From: Nitrospirota bacterium | Lineage (GTDB): Bacteria > Nitrospirota > UBA9217 | Length of the DNA stretch: 64,000 bases | Assembly: GCA_963740085.1 (NCBI GenBank) | Contig: CAVUCU010000007.1 | Span: 64,001-128,000 of the forward strand | Direction: 5' to 3' | Part shown: in pieces, positions 3,693 to 55,908 of the stretch | Position numbering within the stretch: the first letter of the stretch is position 1 | Layout: each line of letters opens with the position of its first letter | Program-made: the position numbers and the translations under genes | The notes under the pieces: generated by a model | The model's input: only the letters and a program-made list of their open reading frames with translations | What the model was told of the DNA's origin: nothing | Database searches by the model: none

Positions 3693-4019
3693 AATCAAGC
3701 GGGCTACATCTGCATTTGCTGGAATGCCGTGAATTGCCTTGCGCGAGCTTTGAGCCGCAGAGGAAGTATCTCCCCTTGATACCGCTAAACGCGAAGATGG
3801 TCAGACGGCTCTGCGCTGGATACTGATGTTCGATGCCGTGACCTGCGCCTTCCCGGGAGCAAAGCGCCTGACACAGACAGAAGACAATATCGCTTCCCCG
3901 TCAATCGAAGGCGGTCCTTCCGCACAACATCCGCACAGCATGCTCTTGACAAACGGCCTTCATTGTCTTACTCTATACCTGCTTCAGACGAGAATGAACC
4001 TCAGGTATAACCCAATAAT

Positions 4020-5354
4020 ATGAACCCTATCTGTATAGTAGACGACGAATCTTCCATTTGTTCCACGGTAGCCAGCATCCTGAAGGACGAGGGATATCAG
4101 ACCATCGCATTTCCGGATGCGGAGAGCTTCTGGCAGGAACTCGATACCATGGAGCCCGCTCTCGTCCTGCTGGATATCTGGCTTCCCGGCATAGACGGAA
4201 TGCAACTCCTGAAACGTCTTCATGGCCGATTGCCCGCGCTCCCGGTCATCATGATGAGCGGACATGCCGGTATCGAGGCGGCGGTTGCCGCCATAAAGGC
4301 CGGTGCCTATGATTTTTTGGAAAAACCGCTGCACCTCGAGGTTTTACTCGACAAGGTGGAGTCTGCGCTTAAGCACAGCCCTTCCGTGAGCGGCGCAACC
4401 CTGCCGTCGGATACGAGGCTCGAGATCGTCAGCACCGACCTTTTGATGCCTCCCGGCATGGTGGACGTGGTGGATTCCCGCGAACCTCAGCGCACTCTCA
4501 GAAGGAATGTGGTCCTTAACGGCATAGGGCTCCTGAGCGGCCGGAACACCGGTATCATCCTGACCCCCCTCGGGATCAACGAAGGGATCATCTTTCAAAC
4601 TCTTGACGGTCAAACCATCCGTGGACATGTCACTTCCCTTGAGGATTTCTCCCGAAAAGTCCTGTCAAAGACCTTCGCCGCCAACTCCACCACACTGGAC
4701 AACGGGAGGCGGCGGGTGCGCACGGTTGAACATCTGATGGCGGTTCTTTCGATGTACGGAATAACCAACGTGCTCATAAAGGTCGACGAGGAGATCCCGA
4801 ACATAGACGGCTCCGCCATGGGTTTTTGCGGCCTCATAGAAGAGGCCGGGATAGAGGAACAGCCCGCCTTCACCAGGGTTGCGGTCATCCGTCAGAAGAT
4901 AGGGGTGGGAAACGAGGAGAAGCATGAAAAACACGTCTATGCAGAGCCCTTTGAGGGGTTCGAGATATCGATGCGGGTCGACTACCTTCCACCCATAGGC
5001 GAACAGGTCCTCACGTTCAATCCCGAAAAGGCGTCTTTTGCAAAGGAGATCGCCCCTGCCCGCTCCTTCAACACGTTTGAGAATATAGAAATGGCCCAGA
5101 AACTTGGAAAGGTCGGCGGCGGATATCTCAATTCGCACATCATCATGTACGATGGCAAGGTCATCAACACGGAGCTTCGTTATCCCGACGAATTCGTTCG
5201 CCACAAGATATTGGATCTGATCGGAGACCTCTACCTCCTCGGCTTCTCCATCAGAGGACGCTTTACCGCCAATATGACCTCGCACGGTTACAATCAGGCC
5301 ATGGTGGAACGCCTGTACCAGGCTATCCAGAGCAGCTCCGGGAAAAGACCGTAA
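4020..5354 (+). CDS. lpxC: Response-regulator receiver domain fused to UDP-3-O-acyl-GlcNAc deacetylase (REC-LpxC)
   Basis: N-terminal IVDDE, LLDIWLPGIDG, MMSGH, FLEKP; C-terminal QRTL...GIGLLSG, TVEHLMA, EIPNIDGSA, EIAPARSF, EFVRHKILDLIGDL. Confidence 0.92.
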   Translation: MNPICIVDDESSICSTVASILKDEGYQTIAFPDAESFWQELDTMEPALVLLDIWLPGIDGMQLLKRLHGRLPALPVIMMSGHAGIEAAVAAIKAGAYDFLEKPLHLEVLLDKVESALKHSPSVSGATLPSDTRLEIVSTDLLMPPGMVDVVDSREPQRTLRRNVVLNGIGLLSGRNTGIILTPLGINEGIIFQTLDGQTIRGHVTSLEDFSRKVLSKTFAANSTTLDNGRRRVRTVEHLMAVLSMYGITNVLIKVDEEIPNIDGSAMGFCGLIEEAGIEEQPAFTRVAVIRQKIGVGNEEKHEKHVYAEPFEGFEISMRVDYLPPIGEQVLTFNPEKASFAKEIAPARSFNTFENIEMAQKLGKVGGGYLNSHIIMYDGKVINTELRYPDEFVRHKILDLIGDLYLLGFSIRGRFTANMTSHGYNQAMVERLYQAIQSSSGKRP

Positions 5355-9235: not shown

Positions 9236-10015
9236 CTACGTCCCGATCATCCCGTCCAGCGGGCTGCTGGCCGTGGCATAGAGCTTCTTCGGGATCCTCC
9301 CCGCTTTGTACGCGAGACGGCCGGCAAGCACGCCGTACTTCATGGCCTCGGCCATCACGATCGGGTCCTTTGCTCCGGCGATCGCGGTGTTCAGCAGCAC
9401 GGCATCGCACCCCAGTTCCATGGCAAGCGCAACATCCGAGGCCGTTCCCACGCCCGCGTCAACGATCATCGGCACCTTCACGGTTTCCATGATGATCCTG
9501 AGATTGTACGGGTTCCTGATTCCGAGGCCGGAGCCGATAGGCGCCGCAAGCGGCATGACCGCGGGACAGCCGATGTCCACAAGCTTCCTGGCCATGATCG
9601 GGTCATCGCTCACATAGGGAAGCACGACCAGGCCTTCCTTCACCAGTACCTTCGCCGCCTCAAGCGTCGCTTCGTTGTCCGGAAACAGGGTCTTGTCGTC
9701 TCCGATCACTTCGAGTTTCACGAGCTTCGAGATTCCCGCCTCCGCCGCGAGCATGGCCGTGCGGATCGCGTCCTTTGCCGTGTAGCAGCCGGCGGTGTTC
9801 GGAAGGATCTTATATTTTTTCGGATCGATATAATCGAGCAGGTTATCTTTGCTCTTGTCGATAATGTTGACCCGCCGGACCGACACGGTCACGACATCGG
9901 TGCCCGAGACCTCGATCGCCCTCTTCGTCTCCTCAAAATCCTTGTATTTCCCTGTCCCCACCCAGAGCCGCGAACTGAACTCAATGCCTGCAATGGTCAG
10001 TTTGTCGTCAGTCAT
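9236..10015 (-). CDS. thiG: Thiazole synthase
   Basis: [42 protein letters not shown]. Confidence 0.96.
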
Positions 10016-10032
10016 ACTAAACCCATCCTTGA

Positions 10033-10281
10033 TTATTCAATTTCCAGCATGCAATTTGTAATTTCCGATTGCGCTTGCGCGCACCCTCCCGCCATAAAGC
10101 TCACCACTTCCAGAACATCACCGTCCCTGATCGTTGTCTCGCCGTACCGGTCCTTCTTAACGATCTCCCTGTTCAGCTCGACCGCAACGCGCTGCTGCTG
10201 GACCTTCAGAAAATCGAGCAACCCGGGGACCGTAATGCCGCTCGGAACTTCTTTCTTTTCACCGTTCAGCGTTATGATCAT
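10033..10281 (-). CDS. thiS: Sulfur carrier ThiS with a 16-aa extension after the GG motif
   Basis: MIITLNGE...[11 protein letters not shown]...[14 protein letters not shown] followed by [16 protein letters not shown]. Confidence 0.88.
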
Positions 10282-10395: not shown

Positions 10396-10419
10396 GAAAA
10401 GGTTTTACACGATGCGCTA

Positions 10420-10516
10420 CTCGCCTTCCCTACGCCGGTACTACCCGGATCAGGTTCTAAGGGTCGTCCCTGATATCAGGACTCTCAGCCCCGCCCTGCG
10501 GGGCTCCCCCAGCTTT
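10420..10516 (-). ncRNA. TPP riboswitch
   Basis: Minus strand: GGGGGAGCCCC...GGCTGAGAG...GACCCTTAGAACCTGATCCGGGTAGTACCGGCGTAGGGAAG, upstream of thiS. Confidence 0.95.
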
Positions 10517-10526
10517 CTGTAGTGGT

Positions 10527-10582: not shown

Positions 10583-11179
10583 TTACCCGTTCAGCAGTTT
10601 TACAACAGCCATGCCGTCATCATAAAAATCGATGATATTGAGACCGCCGAAGGCCTGTTCTATCCGAAAAATATTCAGCGGTTCCATGCCGAGCGTGTCG
10701 GCAAGGATGACCCTGTTCACGCCGCCGTGGAGGAGCATGGCGATCTCCTGCTCCCGATGGGACGCGACCAGCCGTTTGAACACCGGCAGGACCCGCGCGC
10801 TCACGTCGAGGAGACACTCTCCGCCGGGAGGGCGATAATGGAGCAGGTCTGCCCGCCACGCCGCGTATTGTTCGGGGAAGCGCGTTTTTATCTCTTCGGC
10901 CGTCAGGCCTTCCCATGCGCCTACGCTGCGTTCCCGGAGTTCGGGAAGGGGCGTGTACGATATGCCGAAACGGTCGGAGATGATTGCGGCGCCTCTGGTC
11001 GAACGGATGAGGTCGCTCGAATAGACGGCGGAGATCTTCTTGTCTTCAAGCAGCCCCGCCAGCCGGTGCATCTGTTCGATGCCCTTCTTCGTGATGTCGA
11101 TATCAATATGACCGTTGTACCGCTTCTCACCGTCGTTCGCCACTTCGCCGTGGCGCATGAGGTAAACCCGGGTAGGCAT
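10583..11179 (-). CDS. cobC: Alpha-ribazole phosphatase (histidine phosphatase)
   Basis: YLMRHGE, SSDLIRS, LRERSVGAWEG, HGGVNR; next to cobS. Confidence 0.85.
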   Translation of the reverse strand: MPTRVYLMRHGEVANDGEKRYNGHIDIDITKKGIEQMHRLAGLLEDKKISAVYSSDLIRSTRGAAIISDRFGISYTPLPELRERSVGAWEGLTAEEIKTRFPEQYAAWRADLLHYRPPGGECLLDVSARVLPVFKRLVASHREQEIAMLLHGGVNRVILADTLGMEPLNIFRIEQAFGGLNIIDFYDDGMAVVKLLNG

Positions 11180-13120: not shown

Positions 13121-13347
13121 TTTGTTCTCCTTTTAAGCAAAAAAAATATTATGGGGCAAGGGGCATTTCTTTCATAACCTTCGGCAATATAAGCAGGGAT
13201 AGAAACAACAGCACGTTGTATTTGTGATATCAATCCATACGTTTCAGCCTTCGGGAATATCTTTGTAAGCCGATAAATCTCCAAGGTTAGTTCATATGCC
13301 ATTTGCCAAACAGTAAGTTGCCTAAATCCCTTTGTTTCTTTTTCCAT
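13117..13347 (-). pseudogene. Truncated four-helix-bundle protein (23S rRNA intervening-sequence / TIGR02436-like), flanked by heptamer repeats
   Basis: FRQLTVWQMAYELTLEIYRLTKIFPKAETYGLISQIQRAVVSIPAYIAEGYER then loses similarity; lower GC than the cob genes. Confidence 0.85.
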
Positions 13348-13386
13348 GACCCATGACCCCTGCCCCCGCCGCTTGCCCCTGACCCA

Positions 13387-13908
13387 TTATTTGATCTTCA
13401 CCGGTATTCCCGCCGCAGTGAAATATACCTCATGTGCCGCCAGTGCCACCCGCTGGTTCAGGATCCCGGCAAAATCCCGAAATCTCCTCGCAAGCGGATT
13501 ATCCGGCACGATGCCGAGCCCCACTTCGTTGGACACAATGATGCATGCGCCGTCAAACTTTTCTATCGCCGCCACCAGATCTTCGGTCCTGGAGGTCACT
13601 GCGCCGTCACCCTCCGTATGGGCCATGACGTTGCTCAGCCAGAGGGTGAGGCAATCGAGGAGCACCACGTCATAGCGGCCGGAGAGCCTCTTGAGCAGTT
13701 GAGCCACCGCGATCGGCTCCTCATAGGTGTCCCATGCAGTGCCCCGGTCTTTTCTGTGTTTCTGGATCCTCGCCGCCATCTCGGGGTCGAGCGCCTGCGC
13801 TGTGGCGAGGTACGCCCGCTTACCCCCCAGTTCGCCGGCCAGTTTCTCGGCAAACGCCGACTTCCCGGACCGTGCCCCGCCGGTAATGAAGTATATTTTA
13901 TGAGACAT
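13387..13908 (-). CDS. cobU: Adenosylcobinamide kinase / cobinamide-phosphate guanylyltransferase
   Basis: ITGGARSGKSAFAE, YLATA, LLDCLTLWLSN, VSNEVGLGIVP. Confidence 0.96.
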   Translation of the reverse strand: MSHKIYFITGGARSGKSAFAEKLAGELGGKRAYLATAQALDPEMAARIQKHRKDRGTAWDTYEEPIAVAQLLKRLSGRYDVVLLDCLTLWLSNVMAHTEGDGAVTSRTEDLVAAIEKFDGACIIVSNEVGLGIVPDNPLARRFRDFAGILNQRVALAAHEVYFTAAGIPVKIK

Positions 13909-13927
13909 GACAAGGCATCATTCGCAG

Positions 13928-13959
13928 AAAAAAACCCCGCCTGTTCCTTCAGGAGGGGT
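13928..13959 (-). terminator. Intrinsic terminator directly upstream of cobU
   Basis: Minus strand: CCCCTCCTG-AAGGAA-CAGGCGGGG-TTTTTTT. Confidence 0.75.
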
Positions 13960-14083
13960 GAACATTCAGACTGACACGTGACAGCTCGTCAGATCGCAAA
14001 CAAAATTCCGTTACTCCTTCAAAAGCCTTTTTGTCCGTCGCCTGCCAGTCTGTCTCAGTAAATCTGTCTTCGTAATGCATGTA

Positions 14084-14111
14084 TGGACCGGGCGACGGGA
14101 TTCGAACCCGC
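14084..14111 (-). repeat. Direct-repeat copy of the tRNA-Gly 3' end (att-like, or tRNA minihelix)
   Basis: 27 of 28 nt identical to 15096-15123. Confidence 0.9.
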
Positions 14112-14131
14112 TTTGACTCAACCCGGAAGTG

Positions 14132-14160
14132 ATTATAATTCAAGTGTTACATCTTGTCAA
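14132..14160 (-). promoter_or_regulatory. Consensus sigma70 promoter
   Basis: TTGACA-17 bp-TATAAT on the minus strand. Confidence 0.8.
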
Positions 14161-14529
14161 TAGCGTAAAAAGTGCTTTACTTTTCCTTTACACATTCAAG
14201 TTGGCGATTAGATTCTCACCCCCTTGCAAATTACTTCAGTCCGTCTATACTCTACCCCATCACTAGCACAATCGAGGAAAGAACACCCCCACATGACCCT
14301 CTCCCTATTCGGTTTACCAATAGACATCCTCGGCGTTCCCAGCTACGATTTCACACCCCGTACCTTCTCATAGTAAACTGTCCTTCAAAAGCCTATATAT
14401 CAGATGGAACCGTACCCCACCAAAAGCAAACCATTTATAATGGTCTTGACATATTTTAGATGGAATGTTACAATATTTCATAACTGATGGCTATCATGGT
14501 TTCTGCTGAGAGGAGAGAGGAGATAGGAA

Positions 14530-14784
14530 ATGAAGGATGGATTAGATTTGCAAATCAATCAGTCACAAGATACTTCAGCAACTGTGAATTTTGCTGCCTT
14601 TATTCCCCGATTGTGGATGATAATGATTGTTTTTGCCATTCCCTTTTTGATTATCACTTGGCACTTTTTTGAAGCGTTAGAAAGACGTGGAGACACTTGG
14701 GCTTTTATTGCAGATATGCTTCTGCCAGCAACCAACATAGCTTTCGTGGCGTTGATATTTATGTTAAAAAGTAAAAAGATTTAA
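14530..14784 (+). CDS. Small hypothetical membrane protein with 2 TM helices
   Basis: Purine-rich RBS; two hydrophobic stretches; AT-rich. Confidence 0.45.
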   Translation: MKDGLDLQINQSQDTSATVNFAAFIPRLWMIMIVFAIPFLIITWHFFEALERRGDTWAFIADMLLPATNIAFVALIFMLKSKKI

Positions 14785-14894
14785 TTTTTCATGAAAAAAG
14801 ATAGCAACAGAAGGATGTTGCATATTAGGTAAATCATCAAAACAAGGAAACCATATGTAGAAGTAACAATCAAATATTCCGCTGTTAAGAACTA

Positions 14895-14980
14895 CGTAAT
14901 TTCGGCAAACCCGGTGAAAATCGGTGACGCAAAGCTATAGGGGCTTCGATTAATAACCATGCCAGCCAGCTGTAATTACG
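14895..14980 (+). ncRNA. c-di-GMP-I (GEMM-I) riboswitch-like element with a variant 3' junction
   Basis: CGTAATT-TC-GGCAAACCCGGT-GAAA-ATCGGT-GACGCAAAGCTATAGGGG...ATGCCAGCCAGCTGT-AATTACG; outer P1 arms are complementary. Confidence 0.8.
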
Positions 14981-15095
14981 GGCATCTAGGAACGGATGCG
15001 GCTAAGAGGGTAGTAGATGGGTAATTTAGGTACGTTACAGATACTTTACACTCGGCTGAAACGTTATAATTTGCCTAATGAATTCATGTAAATAA

Positions 15096-15171
15096 TGGAG
15101 CGGGCGACGGGATTCGAACCCGCGACACCAAGCTTGGGAAGCTTGTACTCTACCAACTGAGCTACGCCCGC
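15096..15171 (-). tRNA. tRNA-Gly(CCC)
   Basis: GCGGGCGTAGCTCAGTTGGTAGAGTACAAGCTTCCCAAGCTTGGTGTCGCGGGTTCGAATCCCGTCGCCCGCTCCA; 76-nt cloverleaf with encoded CCA. Confidence 0.97.
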
Positions 15172-15184
15172 TTTTCCGAAAATC

Positions 15185-15213
15185 ATTATAGCGGCCGGCC
15201 TCTGTGTTGTCAA
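15185..15213 (-). promoter_or_regulatory. Consensus sigma70 promoter of tRNA-Gly
   Basis: TTGACA-17 bp-TATAAT. Confidence 0.8.
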
Positions 15214-15248
15214 TCAAAAACCCCGACGTCGCGTGCGACGCCGTTGCA

Positions 15249-15731
15249 TTACAGGTAAGCCTTGATGTCCTTTTCCAGCTCCTCGTCGCTGCCCATACCG
15301 AGATACCGCTTCGATATCTTGCCTTCTTTATCCAGCACCAGCATCATGGGGATCGAGCGCACCTGGTATTTTTTGGCGACATCCTCGGTGCCCTTCAGTA
15401 TGGTATAGGTAATTCCGCTTTCCTTTATAAACGACTGTACCTCATCCCATCCGCCCTCGTCCATTGACACCGCGAGCAGCACCAGCCCCTTGTCCTTGTA
15501 TGCCTTATGCAGCTTCTCAAGACCCGGCACGGATGCGCGGCACGGCGGGCACCAGGTGGCCCAGAACTCGAGCAGCACAACCTTGCCTTTGTAATCCGAC
15601 AGTTTAATGGTCTTCCCGCTCATGTCCTGGAGCGAAAAATCAGAGGCCATGGTGTCCAGATGTGCGCCTTTGTCAGTGCAGCCGGCCAGCAACGCCATCG
15701 CGATGATTGATAGAACAACGAATCTCTTCAC
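15249..15731 (-). CDS. TlpA-family disulfide reductase lipoprotein
   Basis: Lipobox LLAGC; FWATWCPPC. Confidence 0.9.
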   Translation of the reverse strand: MKRFVVLSIIAMALLAGCTDKGAHLDTMASDFSLQDMSGKTIKLSDYKGKVVLLEFWATWCPPCRASVPGLEKLHKAYKDKGLVLLAVSMDEGGWDEVQSFIKESGITYTILKGTEDVAKKYQVRSIPMMLVLDKEGKISKRYLGMGSDEELEKDIKAYL

Positions 15732-15850
15732 AGAAGCATCTCCTTCTCAAACAACCGATAAAACAAAAACTGCCCGCCAAAGCGGGCTGTCGATCCGACG
15801 ACTTGCATTCGAACCCAACATACCGGTGTCCAGCCATGCAGGAAAGACAA

Positions 15851-38518: not shown

Positions 38519-39475
38519 TTAATTCATGTATCTCATCGGGTTCACCGGCAGTCCATTCAAACGCACTTCGTAATGGAGGTGAGGGCCCGTGCTCGAACCG
38601 GAATCGCCCAGGTAGGAGATCACATCGCCGCGCTTGACCCGTTGTCCTGCTTTGACGTTCAACCGTGAATTGTGGGCAAAAATCGTTTTAATGCCGTATC
38701 CGTGGCTGATCTCAACCATATTACCATAGCCAGTATTGAAACCCGCCATGATCACCACGCCATCTGCCGGCGCCACGACCGGCGTCCCGGTCTGGGCCGC
38801 GATATCGATGCCTTCATGGAACTTCAGGATGCCGCTGAACGGCGAGGTCCGGTTCCCGAAGGGCGAGGTGACCCAGCCGCGGACCGGCCATACCGAGGGT
38901 GTTGATGCATACAGGGAACGTTTGTCCTCAAAATACTCAATCAGCAACTGAAGACTGGCCTCTTGCCGTGACGCAGCGCCCTTCAACTGGCTCAACTCCT
39001 GGTGCATCTCTTTCAGGGCTTCTTCCTGTTTTTTCTCACCCAGGGTGGTAAGGTTCTGAAGACCGAGTTCATCAGGTCCTCCGATGCCGAGTACCTGTTG
39101 AGCCTTGTCCCGGGGGCCGAGGCTCACGACACGCCGCAACTTGGTATCAAGGTCGCGCAGCAGGAACATTTGACGTTTATAATCCAGCAGGTTAAGCGCA
39201 AAACTCTGCACCTGCGCCTTTTGCTGCATCAGTTCTTCGCGCACCGACTGCAATTCCCAGACCTTGTCTTTTACATCGTTATATTCGTAGACCAGATAGA
39301 GGGAAAGGACGAGCACAGCCACAAACGAAAGGAAAACAGACTTAAGAGCGGATTTTGAAATACTCAGTGTTCTAACCCGAGAGTTGGGACCGGGCAGGAA
39401 CATAAGGGTGAAATACTCTTTTTTCCTAATCTTTCTTGGATTCTTCGATCTCATCAAACCCCCGATAGTGTGCAT
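38519..39475 (-). CDS. M23 family peptidase with TM anchor and coiled coil
   Basis: [22 protein letters not shown]. Confidence 0.9.
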
Positions 39476-54690: not shown

Positions 54691-54906
54691 CTTAGCACAG
54701 CAAGAGTTCTTTTGACAACAAGGAACAAGATGGTTATAATATGTAACTACACAGGTGAATAGACTGAAGGTAGATAGGTTGGAGTTGATGGTGAAAAGTT
54801 AAGGGATAGTCAGCCTTCAGCCTAAAAACCCGACTCCTTCAGTCTTCAGCCTGACCGCCTAGGTGTCTGCAAAAAAAGTCTTTCATAAGCGCACACGGGA
54901 GCATAT

Positions 54907-55908
54907 ATGCCTGAATTACGAAAAGATCCTATCACCGGCCGCTGGGTCATCATCTCTTCCGAGCGCGGCAAGCGACCCGCGGATTTCCAGGACCAGCGCG
55001 GTAAAAAAAGGGGGGGGTTCTGCCCCTTCTGTGCAGGGAACGAACGCACCACTCCGAATGAGGTCCTGGCCTATCGCGCTGCCGGGGTGAACACACCAAA
55101 CGGACCGGGCTGGCGGCTCCGCGTAGTACCGAACAAGTTTCCCGCGCTCCAGATCGAGGGCAACCTGAACAAGCAGGGCGAGGGCATCTTCGACAAGATG
55201 AACGGGATCGGCGCACACGAGGTGATCATCGAAAGCCCCGACCATAACGCCACGCTCGCGACCCTTCCGCAGCAGGCGATGGAAGAGGTGCTCTGGGCGT
55301 ACCGGGACCGCATGGAAGACCTGAAGCGGGACACCCGCTTCCAATATGCGCTCATCTTCAAGAACGAAGGACTTTCGGCAGGGGCAACGCTCGAACACAC
55401 CCATTCACAGCTCATCGCGCTGCCGATCGTGCCGATCCATGTGCAGGAAGAGCTCGACGCGTGCCGACGACACTACAACCTCAAGGAGCGCTGCATTTTC
55501 TGCGACATCGTGCGTCAGGAGATACGATCGGGGGCGCGCGTGGTGCTCGAGACACCGCTCTTCATTGCCCTGGCGCCCTTCGCACCCCGTTTCCCTTTCG
55601 AGACCTGGATCATGCCCAAGTCACATCTCTCCTGTTATACCTCCTCCTCCAACGAGGATTTTAAAGATCTTGCCGGTCTCCTGCAAAATGTTCTTCAGCG
55701 GATCGATCGTGCGCTCTCGACTCCTCCGTACAACTTCGTGATCCATACCTCTCCGTTCAAGGATGAATGCAACGATTACTATCACTGGCACATCGAACTC
55801 ATGCCCAAGTTAACGAACGTGGCAGGTTTCGAATGGGGATCCGGGTTCTATATCAATCCCACGCCGCCCGAGGAGGCGGCGAAATTCCTGCGGGAAATCA
55901 AGGCATGA
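54907..55908 (+). CDS. galT: Galactose-1-phosphate uridylyltransferase family (HIT-related)
   Basis: ELRKDP, CPFC, VVPNKFPAL, HEVIIE, HTHSQ, YHWHIE. Confidence 0.88.
   Translation: MPELRKDPITGRWVIISSERGKRPADFQDQRGKKRGGFCPFCAGNERTTPNEVLAYRAAGVNTPNGPGWRLRVVPNKFPALQIEGNLNKQGEGIFDKMNGIGAHEVIIESPDHNATLATLPQQAMEEVLWAYRDRMEDLKRDTRFQYALIFKNEGLSAGATLEHTHSQLIALPIVPIHVQEELDACRRHYNLKERCIFCDIVRQEIRSGARVVLETPLFIALAPFAPRFPFETWIMPKSHLSCYTSSSNEDFKDLAGLLQNVLQRIDRALSTPPYNFVIHTSPFKDECNDYYHWHIELMPKLTNVAGFEWGSGFYINPTPPEEAAKFLREIKA

Follow-up and report, generated by a model that had tools for sequence, protein, structure and literature searches.

A promoter-led copy of a tRNA-Gly 3′ end, probably the attachment-site scar of a small decayed integrative element

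The tRNA-Gly(CCC) locus and its second 3′ end

We analyzed a stretch of 64,000 nucleotides (the window) from a Nitrospirota genome, here labeled G000, and compared it with the other genomes of the same genus (G001 to G008). Both ARAGORN and Rfam call a single tRNA gene in the window, an intact tRNA-Gly(CCC) at positions 15096–15171 of the minus strand (Rfam tRNA score of 69.6 bits, fold z = −3.37), which is the apparent target of an integration event. Scanning upstream of this gene identified its own perfect promoter, TTGACA-17-TATAAT (15185–15213, minus strand). The same promoter is likewise perfect in six of the eight genus relatives read (G001, G003, G004, G005, G006 and G008) and in a member of another genus (G020), while the spacer in G002 is 18 nt long.

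The last 29 nt of this locus, running from the 5′ strand of the T stem to the CCA and one further T (15095–15123, minus strand), form the 3′ end of the working tRNA and are repeated in direct orientation at 14083–14111 with a spacing of 1012. The two copies, identified with a repeat finder, are identical at 28 of 29 positions; the single mismatch places a G at tRNA position 72 of the distal copy instead of a C. Read on the minus strand, positions 14111–14084 therefore hold the T stem-loop, the 3′ strand of the acceptor stem and the UCCA of a glycine tRNA. We refer to the proximal and distal copies as the attL and attR cores, respectively.

Directly before the distal copy, the minus strand carries TTGACA (14160–14155), a 17-nt spacer, TATAAT (14137–14132), the bases CACTT, the arm CCGGG (14126–14122) and a 10-nt linker, TTGAGTCAAA (14121–14112), which includes the palindrome TTGAGTCAA. 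The arm and linker together (14112–14126) lie beyond the repeat boundary, as does the promoter, and all three are consequently insert DNA. An earlier note on this DNA had described the same order, from the promoter through 5 nt, CCGGG, linker, T arm and acceptor strand to UCCA, with C72 to G as the sole difference from the tRNA-Gly 3′ end; re-reading the minus strand showed this layout to be accurate to the base, and the repeat alignment gave the same one mismatch. We also considered that the locus could encode a split or permuted tRNA, and rejected it, given an intact tRNA and the lack of any partner for a 5′ half. A second candidate, that the CCGGG arm is the decayed remnant of the anticodon-loop region from a longer attP homology, is not supported by alignment by hand, which gave 7–8 matches over 17–18 positions and no convincing gaps.

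Downstream of the distal copy lies the native tRNA-Gly trailer (13928–14082, minus strand), delimited by alignment and folding, which ends in a conserved terminator hairpin and U-run (13958–13928). The hairpin and its T-run are kept in all seven aligned genomes of the genus. Beyond it is cobU, encoding cobinamide kinase (13387–13908, minus strand; Pfam CobU, E = 6e-63), whose start codon is 20 nt past the terminator U-run in the window and 20–30 nt past it across the aligned genus members. We found no recognizable promoter or Shine-Dalgarno sequence in the gap between terminator and cobU, either in the window or in the relatives' loci L002–L007 and L010. Expression of cobU may occur by read-through from the tRNA promoter, or the gene may be served by its own promoter in a form that escapes recognition. 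In G020, the tRNA and cobU are separated by another gene. The stretch of trailer from tRNA to cobU was also compared with known riboswitches, and Rfam returned only noise at E ≤ 10.

A small remnant of an integrative element

The two repeat copies enclose 983 bp of AT-rich DNA (14112–15094), with a GC content of 0.32–0.47 compared to 0.52–0.64 in the flanks. When 40 related genomes were searched with positions 13300–15800, both flanks were matched and the middle was not. In seven of the eight other genus genomes (G001–G006 and G008), the site is empty, and tRNA-Gly directly abuts DNA homologous to the window from 14082 downwards; the eighth, G007, could not be assessed, as its contig stops short of the site. 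The comparison with relatives further shows that the junctions of the extra DNA coincide exactly with the ends of the repeat, which is the mark that site-specific integration leaves at a tRNA gene's 3′ end.

The tRNA-Gly(CCC) gene is an integration target in other Nitrospirota as well. In G182, a 3.8-kb element (contig C63, 340–4192; L059) sits at tRNA-Gly(CCC) with the same core from T arm to CCA, and it encodes a 411-aa tyrosine integrase (phrog_1, E = 2.5e-50). The tRNA-Gly(CCC) of G387 holds an insert of 6.9 kb (contig C4, 2596–9537; L060), the core of which extends as far as the anticodon loop. A second copy of a tRNA 3′ end could instead have come about by local duplication, gene conversion or an assembly artefact, and the shortness of the repeat and the lack of an integrase between its copies are compatible with such an origin. 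However, the intervening 983 bp are foreign in composition, absent from the relatives and bounded exactly by the repeat ends, the same core bounds the integrase-bearing element of G182, and the insert is single-copy in the genome, in a unique region on a 281-kb contig. We consider an origin of this kind extremely improbable.

The insert itself encodes no integrase. None of its ORFs matches an integrase, and the integrase of G182, used as a tblastn query, gave matches only at E ≥ 12. Elsewhere in the genome, the search for a cognate enzyme returned just four distant tyrosine-recombinase matches (24–30% identity), none of them nearby. Because it lacks an integrase of its own, we file the insert as a decayed remnant that resembles a CIME, rather than as an autonomous island. 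According to section 2.3 of PMC5704250, a CIME is an element whose integration and transfer genes have been lost while attL and attR are kept; in the window's insert, both att sites are present and integration genes are absent. Partial tRNA genes left behind by integrating elements are described as common in PMC9897764.

It is very likely, in our assessment, that the distal fragment is the attR scar of such a decayed, CIME-like integrative element, with a promoter that faces outward from it. The earlier note had named this as the simpler alternative to its own proposal, and the intact tRNA-Gly(CCC) lying 1012 bp upstream, the shared 29-nt core, the AT-rich insert and the seven of eight empty sites bear it out. 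On this reading, the fragment is a commonplace scar of integration that shows no sign of having been selected for a function. As in other integrase-type insertions into tRNA genes and in CIMEs, a direct repeat of the 3′ part of the tRNA is present, with one copy completing the tRNA, the DNA in between is foreign in composition, relatives have an empty site and the att sites are kept without integration genes. Unlike a typical CIME, the insert is very small (983 bp), and neither a partner element nor a cognate integrase was identified in the genome.

The proposed sequence of events begins with a site-specific, integrase-type insertion that would have placed about 1 kb of foreign, AT-rich DNA in the 3′ end of tRNA-Gly(CCC). 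The 29-nt core from T arm to CCA would thereby have been doubled, so that attL completes the tRNA and attR lies 1012 bp downstream, beside the original trailer and terminator. The element would later have shed its recombinase and most of its cargo while keeping both att sites. A source element with both an integrase and this insert end was not found, and the part played by an integrase is therefore proposed by analogy. For annotation, tRNA-Gly(CCC) would be recorded as the site of a small, decayed integrative element, the distal att copy of which should not be annotated as a gene.

What remains of the cargo is a small mosaic. A promoter that matches the consensus at 11 of 12 positions and has an extended −10 (14446–14474, plus strand; promoter scan) precedes a gene for an 84-aa, two-helix membrane protein (14530–14784, plus strand; ORF list). 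The protein has no Pfam or PHROG match. Its homologues, found by tblastn at 55–67% identity, occupy unrelated loci in G002, G004, G005 and G018, and a related-locus search with the protein returned a G002 contig alone. The two homologue loci profiled for composition, in G002 and G004, sit in patches of lower GC.

The insert also carries a c-di-GMP-I riboswitch aptamer (14894–14977, plus strand; 54 bits in Rfam, compared to a gathering score of 35), oriented towards the tRNA and followed only by a 24-codon ORF (15017–15091, plus strand). The aptamer thus points at the antisense of tRNA-Gly. Five other c-di-GMP-I riboswitches are present elsewhere in the genome, and two of the four that were read downstream precede CxxCH-rich, cytochrome-like ORFs. 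The window contains a TPP riboswitch as well (10409–10520, minus strand; 69.8 bits).

One segment of the insert, 14222–14368, matches G104 at 74–79% identity. On contig C1 of that genome (L028), the two halves of the segment (9538–9608 and 10022–10102) are separated by 414 bp with a 113-aa ORF, and the G104 segment may mark where a related element, decayed and with a variable cassette, ends. A fragment resembling a tRNA T arm lies about 170 nt beyond the matching segment in G104, and about 5 kb from it L028 carries a match to group II intron D1-D4 (3936–4168, minus strand; 75.6 bits). A search of phage and plasmid DNA returned one 42-nt match in a single phage record and none in plasmids. We conclude that the insert is a small mosaic remnant that retains both att sites.

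Six other tRNA 3′ fragments occur in the genome; several of them, at tRNA-Glu and tRNA-Ala, are clearly the scars of islands. Copies of the tRNA-Glu(TTC) 3′ end occur in tandem downstream of that gene at C1:911812 and C1:904721, with a tyrosine-recombinase match at C1:910953–911711. A copy of the tRNA-Ala(GGC) 3′ end (C4:315520) lies 40 kb from its tRNA, which a recombinase match adjoins. The end of one tRNA-Glu scar (Glu_b) and the tRNA-Ala end share the sequence just before the fragment; thus, one island family appears to use two different tRNAs.

The outward-facing promoter, the terminator and cobU

At the edge of the insert, facing outward, is a perfect promoter of the sigma-70 type (14132–14160, minus strand), with −35 and −10 hexamers that match the consensus at 12 of 12 positions and are spaced by 17 nt. 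The 64-kb window contains three perfect TTGACA-N17-TATAAT sequences, compared to 0.00 expected from 100 shuffles. Besides the promoters of the insert edge and of tRNA-Gly, there is one at 54712–54740 (plus strand), 167 nt upstream of a galT-like ORF (54907–55908). The consensus appears to mark working promoters in this organism, and we therefore take the promoter at the insert edge to be functional; judged by its sequence, it is almost certainly real.

The usual distance between a −10 hexamer and its start site predicts that transcription would begin at 14126–14124, which are the first bases of the CCGGG arm. The start near the 5′ end of the helix that the earlier note had predicted agrees with this estimate. 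If transcription instead began at the first purine, G14124, the RNA would lack both the C1-G72 and the C2-G71 pairs.

The insertion cut the tRNA from its terminator. As a result, tRNA transcripts should run into the insert, where the first site of its kind that they meet is a weak, terminator-like hairpin (14821–14804, minus strand; terminator scan). The promoter of the insert now occupies the tRNA's former place relative to the terminator and cobU. Transcription would begin 12–15 nt before the att core and continue across the tRNA fragment and then the former trailer, and it would mostly stop at the native tRNA terminator, yielding an RNA of about 200 nt, with read-through at whatever level the tRNA promoter formerly supplied. 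Any read-through would enter cobU, the start codon of which is 20 nt beyond the terminator, with a putative effect on that gene's expression. If the machinery that processes tRNA 3′ ends were to trim the transcript to its CCA, a hairpin of about 43 nt could arise as a by-product.

The locus is a tidy example of an insertion that parts a tRNA from its terminator and brings a mobile-element promoter to lie before a host operon, here cobU. Promoters that face outward from the ends of mobile elements are known mostly from IS elements and transposons. As in those cases, a consensus promoter within the edge of the element is aimed at a flanking host gene; unlike them, the element here is an integrase-type remnant and its effect on the neighbor is putative.

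It is possible, though unlikely, that the promoter is a relic of the element's own circuitry, which would have read across the attP joint into the element's other end in the excised circle, has no role in the integrated remnant and persists only by virtue of a recent insertion. Some transposons and conjugative elements have promoters that span the joint in this way. Here the promoter is situated within the insert, 20 nt away from the core and aimed at it, and in a circle it would enter the insert at 15094 and proceed downwards until it met the minus-strand hairpin at 14821–14804. The presence of the insert in just one genome of the genus fits a recent event, and the mosaic of remnants, with its orphan riboswitch and the segment that flanks an extra 113-aa ORF in G104, also speaks for a relic. 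However, the far side retains no gene that the promoter could drive, no related intact element with such an arrangement was found and the perfect 12/12 match would be left unexplained. Such an origin of the promoter is compatible with the attR-scar explanation and does not exclude it.

Is the helix at the insert edge more than chance?

The earlier note had read the site as a promoter-driven tRNA minihelix. On this account, the promoter makes a mimic of the top half of a tRNA that was selected for a function, either as an enzyme substrate or decoy or as a processing signal, with RNase P, the CCA-adding enzyme, GlyRS or toxins that read U73 and G71 as candidate targets. The geometry speaks for it. 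A perfect promoter has its predicted start at the 5′ end of the helix, and the 43-nt RNA folds at −15.6 kcal/mol into a 6-bp outer stem, including U6·G67, stacked on the T hairpin and followed by a free UCCA. The stack is tRNA-like in length, comprising six pairs, one U-C mismatch and then the 5-bp T stem.

However, the fold is no better than that of shuffled sequences. Of 200 shuffles, 15 are at least as stable as the 43-nt RNA (z-score of −1.43); for the real tRNA, none of 200 is (−3.37). The helix is interrupted by a bulge of 8–9 nt and a U-C mismatch, with 9 nt unpaired on its 5′ side and 1 nt on its 3′ side, and the CCA is internal to the inferred transcript, 125–155 nt before the terminator. 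It is accordingly not an uninterrupted coaxial helix of acceptor and T stems with a terminal CCA. No tRNA is called at 14084–14126, either by ARAGORN or by cmscan with the tRNA covariance model (RF00005, E ≤ 10).

We next consider how often a 5′ arm of this kind arises by chance, counting arms of at least 5 nt in Watson-Crick pairing that include the terminal pair. Among 30-nt windows, 36 of 1906 in the insert contain such an arm (1.9%, counting windows with the real arm), as do 6146 of 127,940 across the whole window (4.8%), an expectation of about 2–5%; when the same arm is allowed in any register, the frequencies are 3.3% and 9.8%, respectively. As a control within the genome, the last 24 nt of each of its 43 tRNAs were sought outside tRNA genes, giving seven copies. 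Two of the seven have an arm within 74 nt upstream, the Gly fragment and the tRNA-Glu scar Glu_b, while a promoter-like site within 120 nt is found only at the Gly fragment and at none of the other six. The distal tRNA-Gly fragments of G182, G387 and a metagenome contig (L071) have no arm by eye and no promoter-like site upstream (none of three). We conclude that the promoter exceeds chance, that the T arm simply comes from the tRNA by inheritance and that the 5′ arm exceeds chance marginally at best. The pairing of five insert bases with a displaced acceptor strand is most probably incidental.

The earlier note had also proposed to look for the locus in relatives and to examine it for covariation. 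The insert end has no homologue among 400 other Nitrospirota genomes (searched with 14112–14529) or among 63 other genomes of the family (searched with 14112–14330), which leaves neither conservation nor covariation to support a selected helix. The sole match beyond chance length is the one in G104, which covers 14222–14368 and not the promoter or the arm. The exact 24-mer across the junction had no match in metagenome and viral collections.

Synthetic tRNA minihelices and microhelices serve as substrates for aminoacyl-tRNA synthetases, RNase P and the CCA-adding enzyme, and Gly microhelices can be charged. The RNA predicted here resembles them in having an acceptor-like stem on a T arm and a single-stranded NCCA; it differs from them in its C-G first pair, its 8–9-nt bulge, its U-C mismatch and a CCA that is not the end of the transcript. 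In PMC9976931, the bacterial glycine identity set is given as G1-C72, U73, C2-G71, C35 and C36, and G1-C72 is described as being of importance to glycylation both in E. coli and in T. thermophilus. By sequence and fold, the minihelix possesses U73, C2-G71 and G3-C70, while its first pair, C1-G72, inverts G1-C72, and C35 and C36 are absent. It carries the glycine identity elements U73 and C2-G71 and lacks the remainder of the set. With the first pair inverted, no anticodon, an interrupted helix and an internal CCA, a glycine-accepting minihelix is not what the sequence predicts.

The change at position 72 is the best point in favor of a tRNA mimic. All tRNA-Gly genes read in relatives have C72, so the G72 of the distal copy is derived, and in a phylum-wide pattern search a G at this position was absent among the matches listed. 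It could be a mutation that followed integration or, had the strands been exchanged within the last five bases, a base contributed by the element's attP. The G lengthens the arm to five Watson-Crick pairs from the four formed with the ancestral C, and a random substitution rarely extends a helix in this way. The earlier note had called the resulting C1-G72 pair compensatory. The pair does form and adds one Watson-Crick pair; it also inverts a glycine identity pair, and the arm to which it belongs is within the range of chance.

A 25-mer with the G72 variant was found in no viral contig and in one metagenome contig (L071). There, at 11050–11102, it is part of a lone, degenerate 3′ fragment of tRNA-Gly(CCC) that extends from the anticodon loop to the CCA, and tRNA calling over 11.5 kb of this contig returned no gene. 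We also compared the Gly fragment with tmRNA, whose tRNA-like domain likewise joins an acceptor stem and a T arm without an anticodon arm in an RNA that is not a tRNA. Unlike tmRNA, the fragment has no tag reading frame and no pseudoknots, and it shares just a 15-nt T-loop match that scores 12.4 bits, compared to a gathering score of 47, which rules out membership.

Taken on these measurements, the headline of a selected tRNA mimic has only geometry in its favor, and we hold it to be highly improbable. A more specific version, in which the 5′-triphosphate RNA from the insert edge, its first 43 nt folded like the top half of a tRNA, is trimmed to UCCA and acts as a decoy or competitor for enzymes that recognize the acceptor end of tRNA-Gly, or in which the structure protects the 5′ end of transcripts that read into cobU, appears very unlikely to us. 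If it were true, the cell would have turned an integration scar into a small RNA gene, with C72 to G as a fixing mutation. If the RNA is made and trimmed to its CCA, the locus would be a natural case of a tRNA-like small RNA derived from a scar. Among the papers listed by our literature search, none was on point about transcribed tRNA fragments at attR, which is not a claim that they are unreported.

The same genome has another set of elements that end like a tRNA, and their existence is a point on the side of a tRNA mimic, since they show that modules of the tRNA end occur outside tRNAs in this lineage. On contig C4 of G000, an element of about 125 nt follows both tRNA-Arg(TCG) and tRNA-Arg(CCG) (38789–38920 and 39173–39294; L082 and L084), and its final 25 nt copy the 3′ terminus of the tRNA directly upstream. 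Related sequences with 74–89% identity over at least 100 nt are present in 13 other family genomes, at as many as three copies per contig. RNAalifold predicts two hairpins, a short stem, the T arm and ACCA, with compensatory changes at three pairs, and the element has no Rfam match at E ≤ 1. It is a candidate for a new tRNA-linked RNA family, and a better candidate than the Gly fragment for a natural RNA that bears a tRNA end.

The rtT segments of the E. coli tyrT operon offer a comparison. These tandem, non-tRNA segments lie downstream of the tRNA gene, are co-transcribed with the tRNA and finish with a copy of its 3′-terminal nucleotides; tRNA processing frees them. Like them, the Gly fragment is a copy of a tRNA 3′ terminus downstream of that tRNA gene; unlike them, it is separated from its tRNA by a foreign insert and has its own promoter. 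The elements linked to tRNA-Arg resemble rtT more closely than the Gly fragment does.
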